A stretch of DNA of 64,000 nt from Minisyncoccota bacterium. GTDB taxonomy: Bacteria > Patescibacteriota > Minisyncoccia > UBA6257 > 2-01-FULL-56-20. Positions 2,334-56,280 of this stretch are shown here, one piece after another (position 1 is the first letter of the stretch; each line of letters begins with the position of its first letter). Position numbers and translations under genes: made by a program. The stretch covers positions 1,990 to 65,989 of the forward strand of contig JANWIW010000030.1 of assembly GCA_025449695.1 (NCBI GenBank). The letters run 5' to 3'. The notes beneath the pieces were generated by a model, which did no database searches, was not told where the DNA came from, and saw only the letters and a program-made list of their open reading frames with translations.

Positions 2334-3803
2334 TTAATATTTTTCCAGCAAATGCACCAGCAGGTTCACGGGAGTGCCGGCCGCGCCCTTGGCCAGGAAC
2401 TCGCTGTCGCTCGGGGTCATGCGCGGGGCGATGTCCAGGTGAACCCAGGGAAAGGGCTTGATGAACTGCCAGAGAAAGACGGCGGCGATGATCGCGCCTG
2501 CCTCGCGGCGGCTCTTGCCCACGTTCGCCCAGTCACCGAAGGTCGCCTTCACCTCGTCCTCGTACTCCTCCCAGAGCGGTAGAGGCCAGACGAAGTCAAA
2601 AGCGCGTTCTCCCGCCTCGCGGAAGAGCTTCTCCAGGTTGAGGTCGGTCGCGAAAAGCGCGGAGGCCTTCTTGCCGAGGGCAACCTCCGCCGCGCCGGTC
2701 AGCGTGGCGATGTCCACCACAAGGCGCGGATCGTACTTCTTGGCATATTCAAGCGCGTCGGCGAGCACTACCCTGCCTTCCGCATCGGTATCCATGATCT
2801 CGATGGTCTTGCCGTTCAACGTCTTTACTACGTCGCCGGGGCGGTAGCTGGAACCGGAAGGCATGTTCTCCGCGGCGGCGATGAGGCCGACGACGTTCTT
2901 CTTTGCCTTCAGCCGGGCAAGGGCGGCCAGAATATGAATGACCGCGGCGCCTCCGGACATGTCGAGGTGCATCTCATAGATGTTCTGGGAAGGCTTGAGG
3001 TTTAGGCCGCCGGAATCGAAGGTGATTCCTTTACCCACAAGGACCACGGGCTTTTCCTTCTTTGAGCCTTTCATGTACTCCATCATGATGAAGCGGGGCG
3101 GGTTGATCGAACCCTTGCCGACGGCGGTGAGACCGCCCATGCCCAGTTCGCGGATCTTTTTTTCGTCCATGACGCTCACCTTGATGCCGCAGCGCTTGCC
3201 GGTCGAGACCGCCGCTTCGGCCAGGGTCTGCGGGGCCATGTCGCCACCCGGCGTATTGGCAAGCTCGCGAGTGCGATTGATCTCCTCGCCGATGACCTGG
3301 CCGCGCGCCAGGGCTTTTTGCACCCGCTTCTCCCCGCCGAAGACCACGATCTTCTCCACCCGGTTCCATCCTTCCTTGGGCGGCGTCTTATAGTGGGTAT
3401 ACTCGAAATTGGCCACCTCCGATTGGAGCGCCAGCGTCTCCGCGAGATATTCCAGGTCCGAAGCGCCTTTCGCCGCGAAGTCCGCCAGATCCACAAGAAG
3501 AATCTTGATTTTTTCTCTTTTGGCCGTGGCCGTGAGCCTGCGTATCGCGAGCACCGCCTTGCGGGCCGTAAACTTCGCTGGGTCGCCGATGCCGAAAAGG
3601 ACCACCTGAATGCCGGAAGGCAGGAACACTATATGCGAGCCCGGCTCCGCGACCGGCGTCTTCTCGAGAAAGCGGTTCAGAAGGAGCTTGTCCTCGTCGG
3701 AAAGATTCTTATAGAAAGGATGGCCGATGATCTTCTTGCCGCCCTTCACGACGATCACGGATACGGCCTGCGGCTCGAATTTCTTGCTCGCGATTATCTG
3801 CAT
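2334..3803 (-). CDS. pepA: leucyl aminopeptidase (M17 family)
   Basis: 489 aa with the M17 signatures GKGITFDSGG and DTDAEGRVVLADAL. Confidence 0.9.
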   Translation of the reverse strand: MQIIASKKFEPQAVSVIVVKGGKKIIGHPFYKNLSDEDKLLLNRFLEKTPVAEPGSHIVFLPSGIQVVLFGIGDPAKFTARKAVLAIRRLTATAKREKIKILLVDLADFAAKGASDLEYLAETLALQSEVANFEYTHYKTPPKEGWNRVEKIVVFGGEKRVQKALARGQVIGEEINRTRELANTPGGDMAPQTLAEAAVSTGKRCGIKVSVMDEKKIRELGMGGLTAVGKGSINPPRFIMMEYMKGSKKEKPVVLVGKGITFDSGGLNLKPSQNIYEMHLDMSGGAAVIHILAALARLKAKKNVVGLIAAAENMPSGSSYRPGDVVKTLNGKTIEIMDTDAEGRVVLADALEYAKKYDPRLVVDIATLTGAAEVALGKKASALFATDLNLEKLFREAGERAFDFVWPLPLWEEYEDEVKATFGDWANVGKSRREAGAIIAAVFLWQFIKPFPWVHLDIAPRMTPSDSEFLAKGAAGTPVNLLVHLLEKY

Positions 3804-3829
3804 GGGAATGGTTGTGGTATCCGGCGGGC

Positions 3830-4360
3830 CTATTGCGCGTTCCTGTCGCTGCGTACCGCCTGCTTCAGCGTCTCGATTTCGGTGATTAACTTTCGCACGC
3901 TCTCCTCGATACTGTCAATGGCGACGCGGGTCTTGAGGTCGCTCTGCGCTTCCTGTTCGTCTTCCTCCTGGATGCGGTCTATATCCTCGGAAAGCTCTTC
4001 CACGTCCTCGCCGATGTCCTCTACCTCCTCACCCATCCGGTCGATATCTTGGGACAACTCGCCGATGTCTTCGCCCAGATCCTCTACCTCCTCACCCAGA
4101 TCTTCAATGTTTTCCTCGACATCGGCCAAGCTCTTTGTAGCGCGGTTTACGGTCATTTGGATGAAAATGGCGAGATAGATGGCTTCCAGGGAGACCGCAG
4201 TAGTCAGGATGAGCAGGATCTGCTCGGTCGCAAGGCCGGCAAAACGCAGGGCGAAGATGCCCACGAAAAAAAGCGTGTGCAGGACGATAGATGCCGGCGA
4301 TCCGATCCATAAAGTGAGGCGCTCGGAAATATGCTCCAAAGAGGTATCGGGTCGTTCCAT
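3830..4360 (-). CDS. DUF1003-family membrane protein with acidic coiled-coil tail
   Basis: ORF 3830..4468; the likely start is MERPDTS at 4360. It has two TM segments and the motif AVSLEAIYLAIFIQ, shared with the 36550..37083 paralog (VSLEAIILAIIVLLSQNR). The C-terminus has acidic EEVEDLGEDIGEL repeats. Confidence 0.6.
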   Translation of the reverse strand: MERPDTSLEHISERLTLWIGSPASIVLHTLFFVGIFALRFAGLATEQILLILTTAVSLEAIYLAIFIQMTVNRATKSLADVEENIEDLGEEVEDLGEDIGELSQDIDRMGEEVEDIGEDVEELSEDIDRIQEEDEQEAQSDLKTRVAIDSIEESVRKLITEIETLKQAVRSDRNAQ

Positions 4361-12755: not shown

Positions 12756-12846
12756 AGAATAAATGCGCGGACATGCCATTCCCGCGAAGGCGGGAATTGA
12801 TTAGAGCGATGCTGGAGTGGATTCCCGCCTTCGCGGGAATGGCAAG
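12756..12846. repeat. pair of mirror hairpins (ATTCCCGCGAAGGCGGGAAT ... ATTCCCGCCTTCGCGGGAAT)
   Basis: Two 8-bp-stem hairpins with GAAG/CTTC loops in opposite orientation, between the nudix and exonuclease genes. The same TTCCCGC/GCGGGAA module occurs in repeat copy D. Confidence 0.6.
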
Positions 12847-13416: not shown

Positions 13417-16020
13417 CTATTTCCTCATGAGCTTCTGGTGTTCTTCGGTATTGAGCATCCCGCACTTCTTCCACTTTTTGCCCGAGCCGCAGGGGCAAGG
13501 ATCGTTCCGCCCGATCCCCGCAGGAGCTCCACCTGAAGGAATCGCGGGAGCCATGGTGATGACGTTGCCTTGGGGCGCTCCCGCGGGCGCCGCATTGGCA
13601 AGCTTAAATATGTTCGAAAAAGTCCATTCATCGAAGTTCCGCCACAGCGCATCGAAAAGCTTCCGGGATTCCTCGCGATACGCGACCAGTGGATCATGTT
13701 GAGCGTAGGCCCGGAGGCCGATGGATTCCTGGAGCGCTTCCAGGTCATCCAAATGGTTCATCCAGAGAAGATCGAGGAGCTGCAGCAGCCGCCCCGTCGT
13801 CTGGGGGTCCACCGCCGCTTCCACGCTGCGCTTCACGAGCGCATCCCGGAAATCCTCCCCGGCCTCCCAATCGGCGCTTATCTCTAAAGGAATAATACTC
13901 GCCTCGGCCGCCAGTTGCCGGGCGGTCTTAGGGGGCTCTTCGCCCTCGGTCTCCGGCTGGTCCACCGGCCCGGCGATGGATTGGAGATGGGAGTACGCCG
14001 CGTCGAAGATGATCTGTCCGAGCGTCTCAGGATTCATCGCGGTCAGGATGTTTTGCCGACGGCGATAAGCGGCTCCGCGCTGCTTGTTCAGTACGTCATC
14101 GTAATCCAGGAGGTGTTTGCGCATGTCGAAGTTCGCGCCTTCCACCTTGGCCTGGGCCTGGGCTACGGTGCCGGAGATCATCCGGTTCTGGATGGGCTGG
14201 TCCTCGGGGATGTCCAGGCGGTCCATGACTCCCTTTAGGCGTTCTCCTCCGAAGATCCGCATCAGGTCATCCTCAAGAGAGAGGAAGAACTGTGAAAAAC
14301 CGGAGTCGCCCTGGCGTCCCGCGCGGCCGCGCAGCTGGTTGTCGATGCGGCGCGCCTCGTGGCGCTCGGTGCCGATCACGCAAAGGCCTCCCGCCTCCCG
14401 GACCTTGGCCGCCTCGTCAGGATCGGCAGGATTGCCGCCGAGGATGATGTCCACGCCGCGGCCGGCGATGTTCGTCGCGACCGTCACTCTGCCCGGCCGG
14501 CCGGCCTGGGCGATGAGCGCGCCTTCCTCTTCATTCTTTTTCGCGTTCAGGAGATTGTGCGGGACATGCGCGCGGTGGAGCATTTCCGAGAGGGCCTCGT
14601 TTTTCGAAATTGAGGTTGTGCCGACCAGGACCGGCTGGCCCTTCTCGTGCCGCGCTTTGATCTCCTGGACAACCGCCTGCCATTTGCCGTTCGCGGTCTT
14701 ATAGATGAGGTCTTGAGCGTCCACCCGCGCAGTAGGGCGGTTCGGCGGTATGGTCGCAACTTCCAGCTTGTACACCTTATGGAACTCTTCGGCAGAGGTC
14801 TGGGCAGTACCGGTCATGCCCGCAATCTTCTTGTACATCCGGAAGTAGTTCTGGATGGATATCTTGCCGTAGGTGCGGGATTCGTCCTGAACCTTGACCC
14901 CCTCCTTGGCTTCGATGGCCTGGTGCAGACCGCCATTATAGCGGCGGCCGTGGAGCATCCGTCCCGTGAACTCGTCCACAATGATCACCTCGCCGTTCCG
15001 CACCACGTAGTCGCGGTCGAGCTTGAAGAGCGCCTTAGCCTTGAGGCACTCCTCCAAGTAATGGACCAGACGCAGATTTTCCGGAGCGTAGATATTCGGG
15101 ATGCCGGCCATCCGTTCCACCTTCTCGATGCCGGAGGCGGTGATGAGCACGGACTTCCGTTTCTCGTCCAGCTCGTAATCCTCATCCTGCACGAGACCCG
15201 CCACGAGCCGGGTAAAGGTTTTATAGTGATCACTCGACTCGGTGTCCGGGGCGGAGATGATGAGCGGAGTACGGGCCTCGTCGATCAGGATCGAGTCCAC
15301 CTCGTCTATAATGGCGTAAACATGGCCGCGCTGGACCTGCTGAGTAAGGCCGTAGGCAAGGTTATCGCGAAGATAATCGAAGCCGAACTCGTGATTCGTG
15401 CCGTAGGTGATGTCCGCGAGATAAGCCTCGCGGCGGGAAATGGGCCGCAGGAACTCCTGTTGGACCCGGAAGCTCCCGGTCTGGTCGCGTTCCGTGTCCG
15501 CCAGAACTTCTCCTTCCGGAGGGATCTTCCAATCCGGATCATAAAGGAAGGCCGCGTTCGGCACGAGACAGGCCACGGAGAGCCCCAGGGCGCGGTAGAT
15601 CTGTCCCATCCACACGGCGTCGCGGCGGGCCAGATATTCGTTTACGGTCACCACATGGACCCCTTCCCCTCCCAGGGCATTCAAGTACGCGGGAGCGACG
15701 CCGGCAAGGGTCTTACCTTCGCCGGTACCCATTTCTGCCACGCCGCCGCGATGGATGATGAGCCCGCCCATGAGCTGCACGTCGTAGGGACGCTGCCCCA
15801 GCGTCCGCTTTGCGGCCTCCCGGCCCAGCGCGAACGCGTGCGGCAGGATATCATCCAGGGACTCGCCCCCTTTTAAGCGCTCTTTAAGCCTGGAACTCTC
15901 TCCGGCAAGGTTGGCACTTGACAAATTTGAAACCTCGCCCTCAAGAGCGTTCACTTCGGCAACCACGCCCTCCAGCCGGCCCAAGGCGCGGCGGCGGAAT
16001 AAATCATCGAAAATCGCCAT
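13417..16020 (-). CDS. secA: preprotein translocase ATPase SecA
   Basis: 867 aa with DEAD-like motor motifs and the C-terminal zinc-binding tail CPCGSGKKWKKC. Confidence 0.95.
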   Translation of the reverse strand: MAIFDDLFRRRALGRLEGVVAEVNALEGEVSNLSSANLAGESSRLKERLKGGESLDDILPHAFALGREAAKRTLGQRPYDVQLMGGLIIHRGGVAEMGTGEGKTLAGVAPAYLNALGGEGVHVVTVNEYLARRDAVWMGQIYRALGLSVACLVPNAAFLYDPDWKIPPEGEVLADTERDQTGSFRVQQEFLRPISRREAYLADITYGTNHEFGFDYLRDNLAYGLTQQVQRGHVYAIIDEVDSILIDEARTPLIISAPDTESSDHYKTFTRLVAGLVQDEDYELDEKRKSVLITASGIEKVERMAGIPNIYAPENLRLVHYLEECLKAKALFKLDRDYVVRNGEVIIVDEFTGRMLHGRRYNGGLHQAIEAKEGVKVQDESRTYGKISIQNYFRMYKKIAGMTGTAQTSAEEFHKVYKLEVATIPPNRPTARVDAQDLIYKTANGKWQAVVQEIKARHEKGQPVLVGTTSISKNEALSEMLHRAHVPHNLLNAKKNEEEGALIAQAGRPGRVTVATNIAGRGVDIILGGNPADPDEAAKVREAGGLCVIGTERHEARRIDNQLRGRAGRQGDSGFSQFFLSLEDDLMRIFGGERLKGVMDRLDIPEDQPIQNRMISGTVAQAQAKVEGANFDMRKHLLDYDDVLNKQRGAAYRRRQNILTAMNPETLGQIIFDAAYSHLQSIAGPVDQPETEGEEPPKTARQLAAEASIIPLEISADWEAGEDFRDALVKRSVEAAVDPQTTGRLLQLLDLLWMNHLDDLEALQESIGLRAYAQHDPLVAYREESRKLFDALWRNFDEWTFSNIFKLANAAPAGAPQGNVITMAPAIPSGGAPAGIGRNDPCPCGSGKKWKKCGMLNTEEHQKLMRK

Positions 16021-16331
16021 CAGTGCTCGGTACGGTATTTCTCGATCTCGTGATGCAGCTTGTCCCGGACCGCATCTATGGCGGCATGGGCGTCCTCGTG
16101 CGTCTCCTCCGCATGCAGGTTTTTCTTGGGAAGGATGAGATCGGCAGCGGCCCGAAAAACCTCTCCTTTATGATGATGCGCGGTAGCACGCTCGATCGTG
16201 GCCTTTAGCTCCAGGGCGCCCAGTTCTTCGTAGCGCTCTATGAATTTATCAAGGGATCCGAGCTTTTGCCGGATATAAGTGTCCAAACTGCCCGTTAAAT
16301 CAAGGTTTTTCGCGGTTATATCGATATGCAT
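16020..16331 (-). CDS. hpf: ribosome hibernation promoting factor / RaiA
   Basis: Begins MHIDITAKNLDLT...DKLHHEIEKYR. The track ORF extends to 16421, but the start was chosen at MHIDIT. Its stop overlaps the secA ATG by 4 nt (ATGA). Confidence 0.85.
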   Translation of the reverse strand: MHIDITAKNLDLTGSLDTYIRQKLGSLDKFIERYEELGALELKATIERATAHHHKGEVFRAAADLILPKKNLHAEETHEDAHAAIDAVRDKLHHEIEKYRTEH

Positions 16332-16713
16332 GATCCGAATAGTATACCTTTTTCCCAAGAAAAAATGAAATTGCCGGAGGGCAATTTCATCTCGAGGCAG
16401 CAATCGAAAGCTCTCTTCCAAAGACCAACCCCCTTTCGGGGGTTGGAGAGAAGCTAGATCCGCTTCTTCGAAGACTTCTTGGCAGTCTTCTTCTTCGCAG
16501 CCTTTTTCTTTGCCATTGTTTTATTTTCGTTTTTTATTTTACATTGGGTTGCCGACCACCCCAATGCGTATCAGATGCGCGAAAATAATTATTTAAAAAA
16601 TTTTTCGCGCCTCTTACCACTTCTTACCTCTAAATTATATCACGTTTCGCACGAAAAATGCCCCAGGCTGTGGATAATTCGCCGTGATGCGTAAATAGAG
16701 ACGCATAGCGGCG

Positions 16714-17673
16714 TTACGATTCCTCCCAATGTAAAAGCTCTACCTCTTCGGTTAGGCGTATCGAAAATTTCTTTCGCACCTCATGCTTCACGAGCGACAT
16801 GAGCGCGACAACATCCTTCGCGCTCGCTTCGCAGACGTTCACAATGAAGTTGGGATGCTTCACTGAGATCATTGCCCCGCCAAAGGACACTCCGCGAAGC
16901 CCCGCCTGGCTCACGAGGCGCGCCGTGGGGATGACGGGAATGGGGTCAGTCTTCACGTTGCGCACGAGCTCTTTCCTGCGGGATCTCGGGATCTCGTCTA
17001 CGGGAACATTCTTGAAAATGCTGCCGATATTCGGGTATTCCAGGGGGTGGCGGGAATGCCGGTACTCCACTTTTTCCCGGATGCCGGCCCGGATCGCTTT
17101 GCGTTCGCCGGGCTTCAGTGAGAAGACCGCCTCGACGATCACCTCTTTTCCATTCCTTTCCTTAAAGATGCTCGACCGGTAATTGAAGCGGCACGCATTT
17201 TTTTTACGAACGGCTATTTTACCCGTACGGACATCTATACTCTTCACCCGGACGATCGAGTCCTTGGTCTCGCCGCCGAACGCTCCCGCATTGCCGCGGA
17301 TCGCTCCGCCGAGCGTTCCGGGCAATCCGCCGGCCCACTCCAACCCGGAGAGAGCCTCTTTCGCGGTGAATTCGAGAAGGTCGGATATGGACACGCCCGC
17401 TCCGGCGGTGACTATATTGCCCCGCCGCGTGAGCGTCATGACATCCGGCTTGAGGACGAAACCGCCGAAACCCTTGTCGGGGATCAATAAGTTCGTACCG
17501 CCTCCGAGAATAAAAAGCGGCGCCTTCAATCGCTTCGCCTCCTTCAGTCCCCTGCGGATGTCGCTCGTGGTCTTGGCACGCCAAAAGAAGCGGGCCGGAC
17601 CCCCGATCTTATAACTCGCATAGGCGCTTAAGGAAACATTCTCTTGCAGCATAATCAACAAGTCTGTCTTCAA
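16714..17673 (-). CDS. murB: UDP-N-acetylenolpyruvoylglucosamine reductase
   Basis: FAD-binding N-terminus YKIGGPARFFW and LFILGGGTNLL, with a MurB C-terminal domain. Confidence 0.85.
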   Translation of the reverse strand: MKTDLLIMLQENVSLSAYASYKIGGPARFFWRAKTTSDIRRGLKEAKRLKAPLFILGGGTNLLIPDKGFGGFVLKPDVMTLTRRGNIVTAGAGVSISDLLEFTAKEALSGLEWAGGLPGTLGGAIRGNAGAFGGETKDSIVRVKSIDVRTGKIAVRKKNACRFNYRSSIFKERNGKEVIVEAVFSLKPGERKAIRAGIREKVEYRHSRHPLEYPNIGSIFKNVPVDEIPRSRRKELVRNVKTDPIPVIPTARLVSQAGLRGVSFGGAMISVKHPNFIVNVCEASAKDVVALMSLVKHEVRKKFSIRLTEEVELLHWEES

Positions 17674-18088
17674 AAGAACAGGCTCCCCGGCAAGCTGCGG
17701 ATTTCGCCCGCGGGCGTGCTGTAAATAACGGTCTCTCCCGGCGCAGGCCGGATCCTGTGGATTTTTCGCCTCAGCGGGTCGCAGACAGCAGCCTCTTCAG
17801 CAGTATAGCCGTACGGCTGTAGTGTGGAGACTTTGTTTCTCGGCGGGCTGCAAATGGTGACCTCCTTTGTTTGTTGGTAAATGAGTGCTCTCTTCGCAGC
17901 CCGTCCAGAAACCAAGTGAAGGCCTTGCCCGCAATCCGCCGGGTCGCGATGTTCCGCGACCCGCTGAAGCGAAAATTGTAAATGAAAAGGATGCACGCCC
18001 TATCCCAACCCACGGAAGATCCGTACCGGCTCATCTTACCACACCTCGGGCAATACAAGACCCGCCGGGCGCGCAAGCGTGGCATCCA

Positions 18089-18219
18089 AGAAACCAAAAT
18101 CCCCCGTGAGGGGGATCCGGCCAAACAAAAGGATAGGATTTTCCTTAACCGTATGACCGCCTAAGGACGATCCACACTCATTCGCAGCCATTGTAGCACA
18201 GAAGGCCTTACAAAGTCAA
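18089..18219 (-). ncRNA. candidate small RNA (about 95 nt) with its own sigma70-like promoter and intrinsic terminator
   Basis: Minus-strand TTGACT (18219-18214), an 18-nt spacer, then TGcTACAAT (18198-18190). About 90 nt downstream is the hairpin ATCCCCCTCACGGGGGAT plus a U-tract (18116-18091). The region has no convincing ORF. Confidence 0.35.
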
Positions 18220-18360
18220 CTCCCTTCAGAAAGCCGCTTCTTTCCTCTCTGTCTGCCACTCCGGAAGCCAGCAGGCTATCCGGAATGGCAGGTCCGAGTA
18301 AAGCCCCCGATCTGCAAGGAAAAGAAAGTGTGACTCTTACCTCTTATCCCTCCAGCACCT

Positions 18361-18999
18361 TCATAACCTCGCCACATCGGGCTTTGGACGGAACACAAAA
18401 TACTTATAACCCAGAAAGTTCCACAGGAAGGACACGCCGATGCCTATGAGCACCCCCAGGTTCGCCCAGAGATTTTCGCCAATCGTGTCCGGTCGCGGCA
18501 GGAAATTCACGAAGCTCCCCGCAGCGGCTACATTCAAGGCCCAGCCAATGCCCGCGATGACATAGAAGCTGAACGCCGCCTCCGCACTGGTCTTATTGTG
18601 AGAATCAAAGGTCCAGAGCTTGTTCCAGAAAAAGCTGTTCGTTGTCGCCCCAAAGAAGGATATAGCCTTGAAGAGCACGTAAGCCGATCCCGCGGCTATG
18701 CCGGTGAACGCGATAAGGAGGTTTACGATGCCGATATCGATCATGCTATTCAGGGTCCCTACCGCGGCGAACTTCGCGAACTGGTAAAGCACGGACCACA
18801 GTTTGCCGAGAAGGTGCGCGATGAAGAGCGCGAGCGGAGCAAGGATCAGGAAGAAAAAAAAGAGGCCAATGCGGACCATAGGGGTCACCGCGAGGCCCGC
18901 CTGGACGATGGTCGTCTCGAGTGTCGAAAGGAGCGGCTGCACCAAAAGTCCTACCAGGGCGCCGATGAGTATAATAAGTCCCAGATCTTTTTTGCTCAT
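18361..18999 (-). CDS. GtrA-family membrane protein
   Basis: Motif FAKFAAVGTLNSMIDIGIVNLL...FFWNKLWTF and 4-5 TM helices. Confidence 0.7.
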   Translation of the reverse strand: MSKKDLGLIILIGALVGLLVQPLLSTLETTIVQAGLAVTPMVRIGLFFFFLILAPLALFIAHLLGKLWSVLYQFAKFAAVGTLNSMIDIGIVNLLIAFTGIAAGSAYVLFKAISFFGATTNSFFWNKLWTFDSHNKTSAEAAFSFYVIAGIGWALNVAAAGSFVNFLPRPDTIGENLWANLGVLIGIGVSFLWNFLGYKYFVFRPKPDVARL

Positions 19000-19252
19000 G
19001 ACATATATTGTACCAAAGGCGAAACGCGTCCTTTGGGAACGCGTTTCATATGGACGGCATGACAGGTCTCGCGAAAAGGGCGGGTGCGAAACCAGGTCCG
19101 ATCGGGCAAGAAGGATTCAAGAAAACGGAGTGTTCGGGCTTATAGCGCCCGAATAATCTTCCAAAACGGTCTAGCACTCAAGGAAGGCACCTCGGACATC
19201 GAACCCTTGCCACGCCGTCGTGGATCTACAGTACGTCTTTTAAATAAGTTAG

Positions 19253-19444
19253 TCAATCATGCTCTGGCGCGCACTTCCGAATGATGATCGGTATGGTGTT
19301 CGTCTCGCGGCTCGCGAGATATCCTAAGGCGAAACTGAACGTGGCGATAAGAAAGAAGAATCCTCCCAGGATAATGGCCTTTCGATGAGCGGCGTAGTAT
19401 TCGCGGACTCCGGATAACGCGCGTTTTATTGACATAGAAGCCAT
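19253..19444 (-). CDS. small hypothetical membrane protein (63 aa)
   Basis: One hydrophobic segment (AIILGGFFFLIATFSFALGYLA). No homology cue. Confidence 0.3.
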   Translation of the reverse strand: MASMSIKRALSGVREYYAAHRKAIILGGFFFLIATFSFALGYLASRETNTIPIIIRKCAPEHD

Positions 19445-19584
19445 TCCCGCTTACAATGATGCGGTCGGATAAAGAAACCTTAAAGAGAGTTCATCTAAAG
19501 GAATGGCGACCCTCCTTCGCTCCTGTGGAGCTTCGGAAGGGTGCTCATTTTTCTAGATAAATTCTTGGAAGAATTTAAAGAAAA

Positions 19585-19860
19585 ATGGCACATACAAAAG
19601 CCCTTGGCTCCACTAAGAACGGCCGCGACTCTCGATCCAAGCGTTTGGGCGTGAAGCTTCAGGATGGCCAGCCCGTCGGCGCCGGCCAGATCATCATCCG
19701 CCAGAGGGGCACCCGCTATCTCCCCGGAGATAACGTGGGCCGGGGCGGAGATGATACCCTCTACGCCCTGAAGGCCGGCACCATCGCCTTCTCTACTAGG
19801 ATCAAGACGCGTTTCGACGGCAATCGCCGTACCGCGACCGTGGTCACAGTGGAAACATAG
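19585..19860 (+). CDS. rpmA: 50S ribosomal protein L27
   Basis: [24 protein letters not shown]... is the classic bL27 N-terminus. Confidence 0.95.
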
Positions 19861-19861
19861 C

Positions 19862-19990
19862 TGTCATCTTGAGCGACCGAAGGAAGTCCCTTTAGGGGCG
19901 ACCGCAGGAAGTCCCCGTGGGAGTATTCCGAAGGACCCCGGTGTTACATCGGGGTCCTTCCCCCGCATCAAGTGCGGGGTCAGGATGACA
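19862..19990. repeat. MITE/REP-like palindromic repeat copy C (TGTCATCTTGAGCG ... GGGGTCAGGATGACA)
   Basis: Inverted termini and an internal imperfect direct repeat (GACCGAAGGAAGTCCC / GACCGCAGGAAGTCCCC), between rpmA and rplI. Confidence 0.7.
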
Positions 19991-19991
19991 A

Positions 19992-20441
19992 CTATATTTC
20001 CCTGCTCACGCGCACGTTCAGAGTCGCTTCGATACCCTTGTGGAAATTCACCTTTACCTTGTGATCGCCGAATGCTTTGAGAGGATGTTCCAAAGCGATC
20101 TCCACCCGGTCATGAGTGGCGAGTCCTTGTTCGCGCAAAGCCTTTAATATCTGGTCCTTATTGATCGAGCCGAACACGGAACCCTGGTCATCCCCTTTTA
20201 GCGTGAATACAAGGGTCGCAGCCTCCAGGTTGCGGCCGAGCTCGGTCAGTCGCTTCACCGTGGCGCTATCCTCCGTCTCATGGGCCTGCCGTTCCGCCTC
20301 TAGCCTGCGCAGCCGCTCGGCGGTCGCGGGCGCCGCGAAGCCTTGCGGGATCAGGAAATTGCGCGCGTAGCCGTCCGCGATATCCTTAACCTGGTCCTTT
20401 TCGCCTTTGCCGGGAACGCGCTTCAGGAATACGATTTTCAT
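19992..20441 (-). CDS. rplI: 50S ribosomal protein L9
   Basis: MKIVFLKRVPGKGEKDQVKDIADGYARNFLIPQGFA matches the bL9 N-domain. Confidence 0.9.
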   Translation of the reverse strand: MKIVFLKRVPGKGEKDQVKDIADGYARNFLIPQGFAAPATAERLRRLEAERQAHETEDSATVKRLTELGRNLEAATLVFTLKGDDQGSVFGSINKDQILKALREQGLATHDRVEIALEHPLKAFGDHKVKVNFHKGIEATLNVRVSREI

Positions 20442-20470
20442 AAGTAATAGTTAAGAGTGAGAAGGGTATT

Positions 20471-20546
20471 TGTCATTCCCGCCTCCGGGCGGGAATCCAC
20501 TCTTGCGCTGGATCCCGGGTAGCCTGACTGGGCTTCCGGGATGACA
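20471..20546. repeat. MITE/REP-like palindromic repeat copy D (TGTCATTCCCGCC ... CTTCCGGGATGACA)
   Basis: Termini plus the internal hairpin ATTCCCGCCTCCGGGCGGGAAT. Its 3' half is nearly identical to the 3' halves of copies G and H. Confidence 0.7.
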
Positions 20547-20558
20547 ATATCTTTCTGG

Positions 20559-21788
20559 CTAATTTTCATTGGCTATTTCCTCTTTCACGACCTGAATTGC
20601 CTTGTCGAGCTGGGGATCGCGTTCGTTTTTAAGGTCTTCCTCGCTGATCTCTATCTCATGATCAGGCTTCAATCCGGAATCTTCCAATATAGTGCCGGAC
20701 GGCAGGACCCAATGCGCGATGGTGAGCTTGATGACGGAACCGCCACTCAGGTCCATAAACTCCTGCACGGTTCCCTTGCCGAAACTTGTCTGACCGATGA
20801 GCTTCACCTGACGGTTATCCCGCAGGGTGCCCGCCAGGATTTCCGCTGCGGACGCCGAACCTTCGTCGATCAGCACCGCGACCGGGATCTTGGCCAGGGC
20901 TTCATTCCCGCTCGCGCGCAGCGTGTCGAGTACGCCCTCGCGGCCCACCTCCTTCACCACTACCGTGCCGCGCGGCAGAAACCATCCCGCCAGGTTGACC
21001 GCCACCTCCAGGTATCCGCCGGGATTGCCGCGCAGGTCCAGGACCAGCCCTTCAGTGCCCGCATCCGCGGCCTTCCGCATCGCGTTCCAGAACAGCGTCT
21101 CCGCATTGGCGTTGAAGCTGTACAGCTGGACGTAGGCAATGCGGTCCGGCAGCATCTTGAAGTCCAGGGTCGGAGCCTGGATGTTCTCGCGGACGATGCT
21201 GAAGTCCTTGGGTCTCTCCCAGCCATCGCGGAAGATGCTCAACTTGACGGTTGTGCCAAGCACGCCGCGGATAAAGCTCACCGCCTGATCCACCGCCATA
21301 TTATCGGTAGAGGTAGCATCGATCATGAATATCTGGTCGTTCGGTTTGAGGCCCGCGCGTTCCGCGGGGGTGCCCTTAAGCGGCGCGACGATCACGAGCT
21401 GGTCGCGGCGGATGCCGATCTCCGCCCCTATGCCGCTGAAATTGCCGTCCACATCCTCCTCAAAGCTCTTGGCCGCGGCCGGCGTGAAGAACTGCGAATA
21501 GGGATCGCCGAGCGATCGCACCAGGCCGCTCACTGCGCCGTTCACCCTCGCATCAGCGGACACATCCGCGGCACTCAGGTGTTTTTCGTCAATCGTCCGC
21601 CAGGCCTCCCAAAAGATTCCGAAATCAGCGTCCGTGGTCGTGCTTTCAACCCCACTCACCCCTTGGACGGCGATCGTCGCAGGCATCCGCCGGCCGGCGG
21701 ACCAGCCCGCATAAAAGCCGGCGAAGACGAGTAGGAGCGCGGCGAGGACCGCGAGCATCGGCAATGCGTATCGGCGGCCGTTTTGCAT
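20559..21788 (-). CDS. ctpA: carboxyl-terminal processing protease (S41)
   Basis: PDZ domain plus S41 motifs (VVLDLRGNPGGYL, GTASAAEI-like), with an N-terminal signal anchor. Confidence 0.9.
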   Translation of the reverse strand: MQNGRRYALPMLAVLAALLLVFAGFYAGWSAGRRMPATIAVQGVSGVESTTTDADFGIFWEAWRTIDEKHLSAADVSADARVNGAVSGLVRSLGDPYSQFFTPAAAKSFEEDVDGNFSGIGAEIGIRRDQLVIVAPLKGTPAERAGLKPNDQIFMIDATSTDNMAVDQAVSFIRGVLGTTVKLSIFRDGWERPKDFSIVRENIQAPTLDFKMLPDRIAYVQLYSFNANAETLFWNAMRKAADAGTEGLVLDLRGNPGGYLEVAVNLAGWFLPRGTVVVKEVGREGVLDTLRASGNEALAKIPVAVLIDEGSASAAEILAGTLRDNRQVKLIGQTSFGKGTVQEFMDLSGGSVIKLTIAHWVLPSGTILEDSGLKPDHEIEISEEDLKNERDPQLDKAIQVVKEEIANEN

Positions 21789-23962: not shown

Positions 23963-24033
23963 TGGGGGATCGTCTAACGGTAGGACAGCGGCCTTTGGAG
24001 CCGTGAATCGGGGTTCGAATCCCTGTCCCCCAG
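23963..24033 (+). tRNA. tRNA-Gln (anticodon UUG)
   Basis: Folded by hand: acceptor UGGGGGA/UCCCCCA, D-arm GUCU-AACGGUA-GGAC, anticodon arm GCGGC-CUUUGGA-GCCGU (anticodon UUG), T-arm CGGGG-UUCGAAU-CCCUG, discriminator G. No encoded CCA. Confidence 0.8.
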
Positions 24034-40259: not shown

Positions 40260-40350
40260 TTCGCAAGTTACACTGCCATTCGCGGCAGTATCGCTTCCGA
40301 TCGGAGCCCGGCCGGGAGCGATACTGCAACCAATGCCGATATCAATAAAA

Positions 40351-40384
40351 ACCAGCTTTCCGTCACCGGAAAGCTGGTTTTTAT
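40351..40384. terminator. bidirectional rho-independent terminator-like hairpin
   Basis: AAAAACCAGCTTTCC-GTCACC-GGAAAGCTGGTTTTTATT, with an A-tract before and a T-tract after. Confidence 0.6.
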
Positions 40385-40572
40385 TGCGGTTATGTCGTTA
40401 CCTACTGGACACAGACGTTCTCGGAGCCACGACACGCAAAGCCAACTTCCCGGAAAGAAAGCTGACAGCAGGAACAGATGCCTTGCTTCAGAACGGTCAT
40501 ATATATTCCAGAGTGCCAGAGCCGGATCTGCCTGTCAATGCCAGGCGGCATTGTGAGAAAAACCCGGTTTTC

Positions 40573-42983: not shown

Positions 42984-43192
42984 GCTTTCCTCTCTTTCAT
43001 TGCGGAGTCCGATCTGATGCACTGCGCTTCCCAAGTTATCAAGTGACAACCTCCGCGGCTGACACTTCTGAAGGGGCAGCGCGAAAGTAACTCATTACAG
43101 CACATAGATTACATGTACGTCAATTCAGGCGAGCCCCCATCACATTGACTTAACTCAGTCGCAATGAGATATTAAAATCGTTCTTTTACGTT

Positions 43193-43234
43193 ATCGCAGC
43201 AGAGGAAAGGAAACATTCTTTCCTCTGCTGCGAT
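43193..43234. promoter_or_regulatory. perfect 17-bp inverted repeat (ATCGCAGCAGAGGAAAG-8nt-CTTTCCTCTGCTGCGAT) in the murQ / membrane-protein divergent region
   Basis: Seen directly. It ends about 30 nt upstream of the 43263 start, before an AAGGAGAG RBS. Confidence 0.5.
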
Positions 43235-43262
43235 CTCAATTGTCCGCACAAGGAGAGCCCTG

Positions 43263-55995: not shown

Positions 55996-56178
55996 TTTCA
56001 TTGGAGAAGCGCATCATCCATAGAATATTCTGACGAAAGGTCGATCACCTAATCGGAATCGAATCACATGCCACGCCAGAACAGAGGCCGCTCTTCCAAG
56101 GCTAGATATCGTGGGCGCTCCAGCTCCTCTTCCAGCCGCTCCTCCGGCGAGAGCTCGGAGGATTAACGAGCCTTCCTC

Positions 56179-56210
56179 AGCGCGAAACCGGCCGTACGGC
56201 CGGTTTCGCG
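56179..56210. promoter_or_regulatory. perfect 15-bp-stem palindrome GCGCGAAACCGGCCG-TA-CGGCCGGTTTCGCGC
   Basis: Seen directly. It lies 70 nt upstream of the small membrane ORF 56281. Confidence 0.5.
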
Positions 56211-56280
56211 CATCATTCTCCCTTCACCGGCCTGTCGTCATAGTGCATACAAAGGCCGAAACCAAAAGACTAACCATCCC

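Follow-up and report, generated by a model that had tools for sequence, protein, structure and literature searches.

Organization of the Locus

Within the window, the whole 64,000-nucleotide stretch of DNA analyzed here, a non-coding gap separates gtrA from an operon composed of murB, hpf, and secA. The genes that frame the gap are as follows.

18999..18361, minus strand: gtrA (Pfam GtrA_DPMS_TM)
16714..17652, minus strand: murB, UDP-N-acetylmuramate dehydrogenase (Pfam MurB_C and FAD_binding_4; NCBIfam PRK13905, 265 bits)
16421..16020, minus strand: hpf, located 3′ of murB
16020..13417, minus strand: secA, located 3′ of hpf

The start codon of murB is most likely ATG 17652 (MLQENVSL...) rather than TTG 17673, because the proteins of relatives begin at the aligned position (MPLQENVSL in L184). 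The non-coding gap therefore extends from 17653 to 18360. The closest MurB proteins, at 52–59% identity, are from Paceibacterota/Parcubacteria MAGs (one-genome-per-species GTDB contigs). This places the window in an uncultivated bacterium of the candidate phyla radiation that lacks a close sequenced relative. The closest relative is L184, whose MurB is 68% identical to that of the window.

Searches of the gap with nhmmer and blastn identified two blocks of ~80% nucleotide identity upstream of murB in relatives. The first, denoted A, corresponds to a predicted small RNA (sRNA) including its promoter and terminator. The second, denoted B, covers 17914..17832 around AAGGAGGT. Conservation of the gap had been put forward in the first-pass annotation as a check on the sRNA, and it is found for both blocks, which recur together upstream of murB in a gtrA–A–B–murB–hpf order that is rigid among relatives. 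Element B and its complementarity to A, the key feature of the locus, were absent from that annotation.

The sRNA Gene A

The features of A, all on the minus strand, are composed of a promoter, a 5′ seed, a hairpin, a second seed, and a terminator.

18190..18219, minus strand: promoter of A, with the −35 box TTGACT at 18219..18214, an 18-nt spacer, and the −10 box at 18195..18190 in the extended form TGcTACAAT
18088..18183, minus strand: sRNA A, ~95 nt, with the predicted 5′ end at G 18183 and the 3′ end in the U-run at ~18091..18086
18174..18183, minus strand: seed a, GAAUGAGUGU, the outermost 5′ stretch of A and the complement of segment b in B
18136..18173, minus strand: hairpin of A, GGAUCGUCCUUAG...UUAAGGAAAAUCC, which is the UCCUUA/UAAGGA hairpin
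18121..18132, minus strand: seed a′, CCUUUUGUUUGG, single-stranded between hairpin and terminator, complementary to segment b′ of B
18086..18118, minus strand: intrinsic terminator of A, GGAUCCCCC-UCAC-GGGGGAUUU, then UGGUUUCUU

Most elements that the first-pass annotation had read from the letters were recovered. A promoter scan located the minus-strand promoter (TTGACT, 18-nt spacer, TGcTACAAT) at 18219..18190, the terminator is present as a G+C hairpin at 18118..18097 followed by AUUUUGGUUUCUU, and the UCCUUA/UAAGGA hairpin is part of the predicted fold, which has an energy of -42.2 kcal/mol against -31.8 ± 3.3 for shuffled sequences (z = -3.2). In the window alone, these signals are moderately above chance. 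Only 5 promoter-like sites occur in 10 kb, this promoter among them, and 10 terminator-like sites are found in the region where 11 are expected. Such site counts, close to those of shuffled sequence, would suit a non-functional spacer in which promoter-like and terminator-like sites have arisen by chance. We assign this explanation a negligible probability, as the comparative data refute it: more than 120 loci, in which MurB is only ~50–60% identical to that of the window, share the complete unit and show covariation in it. It is the comparative data, not the window alone, that make the predicted sRNA feature real.

The architecture of A recurs in 36 genome loci, as a promoter, GAAUGAGUG(Y)G, a variable hairpin, a single-stranded stretch that ends in (A/G)UUCUGUUUGG, and a G+C-rich terminator with a U-run. 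The promoter consensus of these loci has a −35 box of TTGACT or TTGCAn, a spacer of 17–18 nt, and TGnTATAAT, with GAAUGAGUG positioned 6–7 nt past the −10 box. Over 77 loci, the mean −10 score is 5.3 of 6, compared with 2.5 at random control positions. A TG precedes the −10 box in 77% of them (16% of controls), and at least 10 of the 12 promoter consensus positions are matched in 53% (0.3% of controls). Since the −10 box ends 6–7 nt before GAAUGAGUG in 69 of the 77 loci, A most likely starts on the G of this motif, at 18183, instead of at the GGCUGC given in the first-pass annotation.

A covariance model of A, denoted R2, was built from 32 relatives (genome loci). It matches the window at 18192..18084 with 73.3 bits (E = 6e-15), its only real match in 64 kb. 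The model finds A in 45 of 80 genome loci and in 76 of 100 metagenome loci, the latter being an independent set picked solely by the sequence pattern of B. Loci L081–L200 of the comparison derive from Hainich, Rifle, and bog samples, groundwater or peat sites rich in Parcubacteria. RNAalifold on a plain MAFFT alignment of A gave only 5 pairs because of indels, and the structure was instead given by hand and followed by model-based re-alignment. Compensatory changes are found at 9 of 9 hairpin pairs among 73 distinct homologues, with 0 of 500 shuffles reaching the observed covariation, and the terminator covaries at 11 of 11 modelled pairs. For these 20 pairs together, 90% of cells are paired, compared with 72% in shuffles and 32–56% in slid controls. 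Fitting the alignment to the model biases it in favor of the structure; the compensatory changes can nevertheless be seen directly in the raw sequences. Seed a is nearly invariant among relatives.

Taken at the level of sequence, A has its own sigma-70-type promoter and its own intrinsic terminator, the mark of an independent transcription unit expected of a trans-encoded sRNA. The conserved promoter and the covarying hairpin and terminator support the earlier proposal of an independently transcribed ~95-nt sRNA, and the comparisons indicate that A is a real gene, deeply conserved across Parcubacteria/Paceibacteria.

No known RNA family accounts for the region. The 4227 models of Rfam 15, which include SRP, RNase P, tmRNA, 6S, T-box, raiA, and riboswitches, are unmatched by A and B; the only match at gathering score in the window is a tRNA at 23963. 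Relaxing the threshold to E ≤ 10 over 17500..18500 yields chance matches only, the best being nrdJ, upstream of A, with 21 bits against a threshold of 40. Rfam searches of the relatives L061, L047, and L022 returned no matches, and ARAGORN detected no tRNA or tmRNA over 15000..21000. The first-pass statement that the transcript is not SRP RNA, RNase P RNA, tmRNA, or 6S RNA agrees with these searches.

Element B at the Head of the Operon

Element B lies ~170–200 nt downstream of A in the window, on the same strand, at the head of the murB–hpf–secA operon. Its parts are as follows.

17832..17914, minus strand: element B hairpin, from fold and covariation
17912..17893 and 17854..17835, minus strand: 5′ strand and 3′ strand, respectively, of the closing stem P1
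17888..17879 and 17873..17864, minus strand: segments b (GCACUCAUUU) and b′ (CAAACAAAGG), respectively, of the B core
17865..17856, minus strand: invariant GGAGGUCACC of the B core

The closing stem P1 has 10–19 bp and surrounds an almost invariant core, GAGCACUCAUUC-AAnA-CAAACAGAAU-UGGAGGUCACC, or in its longer form GAGA-GCACUCAUUC-AAnA-CAAACAGAAU-UG-GAGGUCACCAC. In the window, B folds with -30.8 kcal/mol (z = -4.65), and 0 of 200 shuffles are as good. A covariance model of B, denoted R1, has a single true match in the window (72.9 bits, E = 8e-20), with its other matches being generic two-strand hairpins. In an alignment of 82 diverse sequences made by MAFFT alone, all 17 of 17 P1 pairs show compensatory changes and 0 of 500 shuffles are as good. 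Double-changed cells number 478 in this set compared with 146 in shuffles, and pairing is 88% in the real structure compared with 39–49% in slid controls. Within the core, an inner helix is formed by CUC with GAG and AUUC with GAAU, and is supported by an A-U to G-C switch from CAUUC/GAAU to CGUUC/GAAC. The GGAGGU is therefore predicted to be paired with GC(A)CUC in B alone. Of 80 murB loci from GTDB genomes, 56 carry B, and the 19 loci labelled Acidobacteriota/Acidiferrales all fall outside these 56. The fold and covariation together indicate that B is a real conserved structured RNA element.

The same stretch of DNA is crossed by a 108-codon ORF (17670..17996, minus strand), which the first-pass annotation had presented as a possible small protein or leader with an internal AAGGAGGT and an ATGA overlap with murB. 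The ORF and AAGGAGGT (GGAGGT at 17865..17860) are both present. The overlap is really TTGA and depends on TTG 17673, which is probably not the start of murB. That this ORF, or a shorter one after AAGGAGGT, encodes a small protein or a leader peptide coupled to murB has in its favor the open frame itself, the strong Shine–Dalgarno-like GGAGGT inside it, and the ATT and TTG codons found 4–6 nt past GGAGGT in the window, which could start the shorter ORF. We regard this as highly improbable. Pfam and NCBIfam searches of five ORFs in the gap gave no matches, and when the 108- and 117-codon ORFs were compared with 200 related loci by tblastn, no protein-level conservation emerged, the weak matches lying only over the B nucleotide block and in either reading frame. 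Neither a conserved ORF nor a consistent start codon follows GGAGG in 45 relatives, and length differences in the loop of B are not multiples of three. The region of the ORF is, moreover, the covarying RNA hairpin B. The 108-codon ORF was rejected as a gene on all of these grounds. What stands of the leader idea is that AAGGAGGT sits in a conserved leader hairpin; a start codon placed consistently after it does not. Although GGAGGUCACC is invariant, Shine–Dalgarno sequences are hardly used in the window's genome, and many genes look leaderless.

Complementarity and Co-Evolution of A and B

Two parts of the B core find their complements in A, one in its 5′ end, GAAUGAGUG, and the other in its second single-stranded stretch, AUUCUGUUUG. 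The 5′ seed GAAUGAGUGC is the complement of GCACUCAUUC in B, and the second seed, (C)GAUUCUGUUUG, is the complement of CAAACAGAAU(UG). For the window, RNAduplex gives a helix of 10 bp with -12.8 kcal/mol between seed a and B, and a helix of 10 bp with a bulge and -12.6 kcal/mol between seed a′ and the loop of B. An identity of A as a cis-antisense RNA was rejected, given that A lies on the same strand as B and that the complementarity is limited to two segments of 10–12 nt.

The second helix, a′:b′, was evaluated with an alignment-free permutation test (RNAduplex) on 77 A/B locus pairs holding 51 distinct loop variants. Cognate pairs have a mean energy of -13.3 kcal/mol, compared with -9.6 ± 0.26 for permuted partners, and 0 of 10,000 permutations are as good. 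The a′ and b′ segments drift in sequence while complementarity is kept locus by locus, as in the pairs CAAAUAGAAC/GUUCUAUUUG, CAAAAAGAAU/AUUCUUUUUG, AACAUAUAG/CUAUAUGUU, CACAGAAGA/UCUUCUGUG, CACAAGUAGAAU/AUUCUACUUGUG, and CAAAUAACG/CGUUAUUUG. A divergent copy upstream of secA has the pair UAAGAGGUUU/AAAUCUCUUA.

Variants of seed a are almost all transitions that keep wobble pairing with B. A compensatory change, GAGUGAGUG with CACUCACUC, is found in L014 and L046, in a sub-clade linked to rny; in the sub-clade that carries it, the inner partner of the segment within B itself has no compensation. A thus combines a conserved single-stranded seed with a compensatory change, as is expected of a trans-encoded sRNA, and the A–B interaction is supported by natural compensatory mutations. 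On the strength of these patterns, A and B are complementary and co-evolve.

Seed a pairs with the 5′ half of the B core and seed a′ with the 3′ half, and therefore the two helices are crossed. A nested cofold cannot hold both, and the crossed topology surfaced when both were enforced; in the standard cofold of A with the leader, the state of lowest predicted energy was not the two-helix complex. Owing to the crossing, the A:B complex would be side-by-side or pseudoknot-like, or the helices would form sequentially.

Arrangement of A and B among Relatives

B was found in 170 loci, and 129 of these have A as well. The usual arrangement, seen in 119 of the 129, places A upstream of B with both on one strand, separated by a median of 99 nt. 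A is on the strand opposite to B in 10 loci and more than 500 nt (0.5–1.4 kb) away in 14, with complementarity kept in both groups. Because A can sit far from B or on the other strand, A acts in trans. Such separability from the target locus is expected of a trans-encoded sRNA, and in L184 there is B without A nearby.

Promoter-like sequences are also found for B. A −10 box TGnTATACT lies 6–8 nt before the stem of B in about a third of relatives, sometimes only 20–30 nt past the terminator of A, and 32% of loci, compared with 8% of controls, have a −10 box before B with 5 or more of its 6 positions matched. The B of L184 stands behind its own TTGAAT–TACAAT promoter. In the window, no good promoter was found directly upstream of B.

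These arrangements bear on the proposal that a single long murB leader begins with A, with the terminator of A as an attenuator and the A–B contact made at long range in cis. The same-strand order with A upstream in 119 of 129 loci and the median gap of 99 nt would fit this proposal, and read-through transcripts carrying both elements are plausible in the window, where a good promoter between A and B is missing. It is nonetheless very unlikely. The complementarity persists where A is on the opposite strand (10 loci) or 0.5–1.4 kb away (14 loci), a strong canonical terminator is conserved after A, many relatives have separate −10 boxes directly before B, and in L184 a promoter of its own precedes B while A is missing from the vicinity.

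The position of B relative to genes is that of a leader, a conserved structured domain at the 5′ end of an mRNA, with the exception of one sub-clade in which B is inverted. The spacer between B and murB is 25–370 nt in relatives, and 25–260 nt in nearly all loci found by the pattern of B. In loci that lack murB, B is followed by hpf or secA, which come later in this operon. Between B and the gene, a terminator is missing from about half of the loci. In ~30 loci there is a strong terminator (-30 to -39 kcal/mol) with a 5′ arm, CCGCUCCGCCCAG, that overlaps the P1 3′ strand, CAGCCGCUCC, so the B stem and the terminator would be mutually exclusive. In this terminator clade, CCGCUCC is common to the closing stem of B and the downstream intrinsic terminator. 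In the ~30 overlap loci, the leader by itself has its lowest energy in the terminator fold, and by nearest-neighbour energies the binding of A does not obviously shift the balance between B stem and terminator. The spacer of the window has the following content.

17653..17831, minus strand: B–murB spacer, with a degenerate partial repeat of the 3′ half of B at 17759..17729 and a weak hairpin plus UUCUUUU at ~17722..17674

No fold signal for a structured expression platform was detected in this ~180-nt spacer (z about 0.1–0.2), and no convincing terminator was found after B in the window. Partial repeats of the 3′ half of B follow B in 24 of 170 loci.

An invariant core within a covarying stem is also what would be seen if B were a riboswitch-like or protein-binding leader, with A as a secondary modulator or decoy. 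The signal would then be a small molecule, the ribosome, or a protein that recognizes the invariant internal loop and GGAGGUCACC. The latter is not explained by pairing with A, and sites complementary to it are not enriched within 64 kb. The exclusive stem and terminator of ~30 loci, where the terminator fold has the lowest energy for the leader by itself, and the tandem partial repeats, as in tandem riboswitches, would be in keeping with such a leader. However, murB, hpf, and secA share no obvious metabolite, the variable part of the loop co-evolves with A rather than being fixed like a ligand pocket, and no known riboswitch family is matched. We consider a riboswitch-like B to be improbable.

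Proposed Mechanism

The preferred reading, to which we give a probability of roughly 60%, is that A is a trans-acting sRNA that remodels the murB–hpf–secA leader by two-site pairing with B. A second A or a second B was not found within the 64 kb of the window. In B alone, segment b (GCACUCAUUC) would pair with GAAU..GAGGU across from it, burying the GGAGGU motif. Seed a′ would dock first, on the apical loop of B and the adjoining strand (CAAACAGAAUUG), a loop-first order that we infer by analogy with loop-initiated antisense pairing. Seed a resembles the GAAU..GAGGU of B itself and would then displace that strand from GCACUCAUUC. In this manner, A would open and re-wire the B core through two helices of ~10–12 bp each.

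The pairing of A and B probably changes expression of the operon. In the terminator clade, where CCGCUCC is common to the B stem and the terminator, control may be on read-through. In the other clades, it may be on translation, or on the processing or stability of the mRNA.

Relation to Known RNA Systems

In plasmid countertranscript attenuation and the related CopA–CopT system, exemplified by RNAI/II of pT181 with the repC leader, RNAIII of pIP501, and CopA–CopT of R1, a small terminated hairpin RNA binds a hairpin in the 5′ leader of its target mRNA. A and B share this arrangement, and their binding would likewise begin at a loop and spread by strand exchange. The competing stem and terminator in the B leader of one clade add a likeness to countertranscript attenuation. 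Unlike the countertranscripts, A is a separate gene that is not on the opposite strand, and its complementarity is confined to two short segments in crossed order. The plasmid systems also control replication, whereas A and B are chromosomal, class-wide, and associated with housekeeping genes.

Trans-encoded sRNAs that remodel self-paired 5′ leaders include DsrA and RprA with rpoS and GlmZ with glmS. A resembles them in having its own promoter, an intrinsic terminator, and a conserved single-stranded seed, and in that it would compete for a leader strand sequestered by an internal partner. GlmZ, too, controls an early step of cell-wall precursor synthesis. A differs from this group in having no sequence or Rfam relationship to it, in its two crossed seeds, and in the position of its gene directly upstream of the target. 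Furthermore, the GGAGG of B that would be freed has no start codon after it, unlike classic ribosome-binding-site release.

The geometry of the complex is reminiscent of the T-box and its tRNA, where a leader RNA is read by another RNA via two contacts in crossed order, and the read-out in one clade of B could be terminator versus antiterminator, as in the T-box. B has, however, no T-box sequence, specifier loop, Stem I features, or Rfam T-box match. Its candidate RNA ligand, A, is a dedicated sRNA rather than a tRNA, and the helices are 10–12 bp rather than 3–4 bp. In relying on two-site recognition more than on antisense pairing, A and B also resemble EBS/IBS.

The raiA motif RNA (Rfam RF03072) is, like B, a conserved structured RNA adjoining a hibernation-factor gene (raiA/hpf), and whether it is cis-acting or free-standing is debated. 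B has no Rfam match to it even at E ≤ 10, and the two differ in size, structure, and phyla. We know of no partner sRNA of raiA RNA.

A and B are closest in mode to plasmid countertranscripts, leader-opening sRNAs, and the geometry of the T-box, and are members of none of these. From the comparisons made here, they are best filed as two new candidate RNA families of sRNA–leader control for which Rfam has no model. Literature searches by topic and by motif sequence returned no relevant paper on the motif or on sRNAs of these bacteria. Bacteria of the candidate phyla radiation have tiny genomes and few known regulators, and to our knowledge their regulatory RNAs are essentially uncharted. The A/B pair fronts three core functions, namely, cell-wall synthesis (murB), ribosome hibernation (hpf), and protein export (secA). 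It can be tested in vitro without cultivation, and the covariance models can be used to annotate further Parcubacteria genomes. The crossed two-site geometry together with the invariant GGAGGUCACC may point beyond simple antisense silencing.

The Inverted Sub-Clade and a Possible Two-Piece RNA

In L021, L029, L032, L046, and L061, B is inverted, divergent from murB, and preceded by (T)TATAAT, and in L061 the inverted B has its own canonical terminator. Given the inversion, B cannot control murB in cis in this sub-clade, and it is a free-standing RNA there.

A free-standing B that is still complementary to A, with its own promoter and terminator, suits the possibility that A and B are two pieces of one bimolecular structured RNA that functions in its own right, for instance as a ribonucleoprotein scaffold, a sensor, or a ribozyme-like complex. 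The proximity to murB would then reflect conserved gene order, and the gtrA–A–B–murB–hpf order is indeed rigid. Crossing of the two helices points to a compact complex with a side-by-side arrangement, not to an antisense duplex, and the invariance of GAGCACUCAUUC, GGAGGUCACC, and GAAUGAGUG across the whole class is more typical of structured RNAs than of sRNA–target pairs. On the other hand, B runs into murB, hpf, or secA without a terminator in most loci, the terminator overlapping its stem in one clade has the appearance of an expression platform, and the a′:b′ helix drifts freely in sequence, as guide–target pairs do. This account is unlikely, and remodelling of the leader by A is preferred over it.

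A more speculative form of RNA–RNA reading, which we hold only tentatively, is that A:B is a dedicated two-piece RNA device, class-wide in the candidate phyla radiation, a compact complex in which two crossed helices of about one turn each let a leader or free-standing RNA be read by its partner RNA, much as a T-box reads tRNA. If so, the GGAGGUCACC/GAGA internal loop of B would be exposed for a further partner, which may be the ribosome, a nuclease, or a ligand, and the device, unlike an ordinary sRNA–target pair, would belong to a new class, either of RNA-sensing switches or of bimolecular structured RNAs.

In the sub-clade with inverted B, A lies ~100 nt from, and divergent to, rny, the gene of RNase Y.

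Translation start and leader of murB

The start of murB is most likely the ATG at 17652 on the minus strand (MLQENVSLSAY...), not the TTG at 17673 given by the ORF tool. Relatives start the gene at the position aligned with this ATG; L184, for example, begins MPLQENVSLNAY. With the start placed at 17652, the overlap with murB that the first-pass annotation attributed to the 108-codon ORF (17670..17996, minus strand) would be an artefact.

Many genes in the window carry a -10-like box (TACAAT, TAAAAT, TAATAAT or TAGAAT) whose end is 7-9 nt before the ATG and have no Shine-Dalgarno sequence, such as those at 18999 (gtrA), 21788, 33140, 49286 and 25449. A Shine-Dalgarno-like word of any kind is found upstream of only 14 of the 35 long ORFs. 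These sequence features suggest that leaderless mRNAs are widespread in this genome, a background against which the structured murB leader of 100-300 nt stands out as conspicuous.

Hairpins and promoter candidates around A and B

The leader usually opens with B, a conserved hairpin complementary to A, the predicted ~95-nt sRNA encoded downstream of gtrA. Two further hairpins lie in the gap:

18252..18290, minus strand: imperfect 13-bp hairpin (CUGCCAUUCCGGA...UCCGGAGUGGCAG), between the gtrA stop and the A promoter
17941..17962, minus strand: perfect 8-bp hairpin (GGGUCGCG-GAACAU-CGCGACCC), between A and B

The first has no U-run, and its match to nrdJ-RNA is weak and below threshold (21 bits against 40, E = 0.27). 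It seems not to be conserved, because the distance from the end of gtrA to A is only about 30-70 nt in several relatives. Just upstream of the second is a lone TACAAT box (17980..17975), which, together with TGgTAAGAT (-10 at 18038..18033), makes up the only promoter candidates for B in the window, both of them weak.

Variation of B among relatives

In 24 of 170 loci, B is followed by one or two partial repeats of the form ACAGAAUUG-UCCCG...insert...CGGGA-GAGGUCACC, which consist of the 3' half of B and an inserted hairpin and lack the GCACUCAUUC strand (L020, L022, L037, L082, L102, L106, L107, L161, L162 and L183, among others). The window holds a degenerate copy:

17729..17759, minus strand: degenerate partial repeat

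These repeats could give A additional places to dock, or they could compete for the 5' strand of B.

One clade shares the motif CCGCUCC between the B stem and a strong downstream terminator, whose 3' arm (GGGCGGAGCGG) is similar to the 5' strand of the B stem (L006, L007, L011, L034, L041-L047, L085, L095, L103, L129, L130, L138, L145-L147, L153, L167, L170, L188 and L196). The murB ATG is placed after the terminator U-run, in L006 at a distance of only 5-6 nt.

The orientation of B relative to murB is reversed in a sub-clade comprising L021, L029, L032, L046 and L061 (B at about 3800..3937, minus strand). In L046, A (3738..3851, plus strand) and B (3937..3852, minus strand) are convergent and abut, and the inverted B of L061 has its own terminator. 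In these five loci, as in L014 and L017, A lies ~100 nt from the RNase Y gene rny and is divergent to it.

Related MurB proteins and other matches to B

Contigs labelled Acidobacteriota or 'Acidiferrales' (L012, L015, L018, L024-L026, L028, L030, L031, L033, L035, L036, L039, L040, L049, L050, L054, L060 and L073) encode MurB proteins 53-56% identical to the Parcubacteria MurB of the window, and many true Parcubacteria MurB are no closer to it. Both A and B are absent from these labelled loci. Horizontal transfer of murB and mis-binning of the contigs are possible causes.

Elsewhere in the window, four long perfect hairpins score weakly with the B model, owing to stem length only, and look like ordinary intergenic bidirectional terminators:

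40340..40389, both strands: long perfect hairpin
12772..12846, both strands: long perfect hairpin
56176..56215, both strands: long perfect hairpin
43190..43237, both strands: long perfect hairpin
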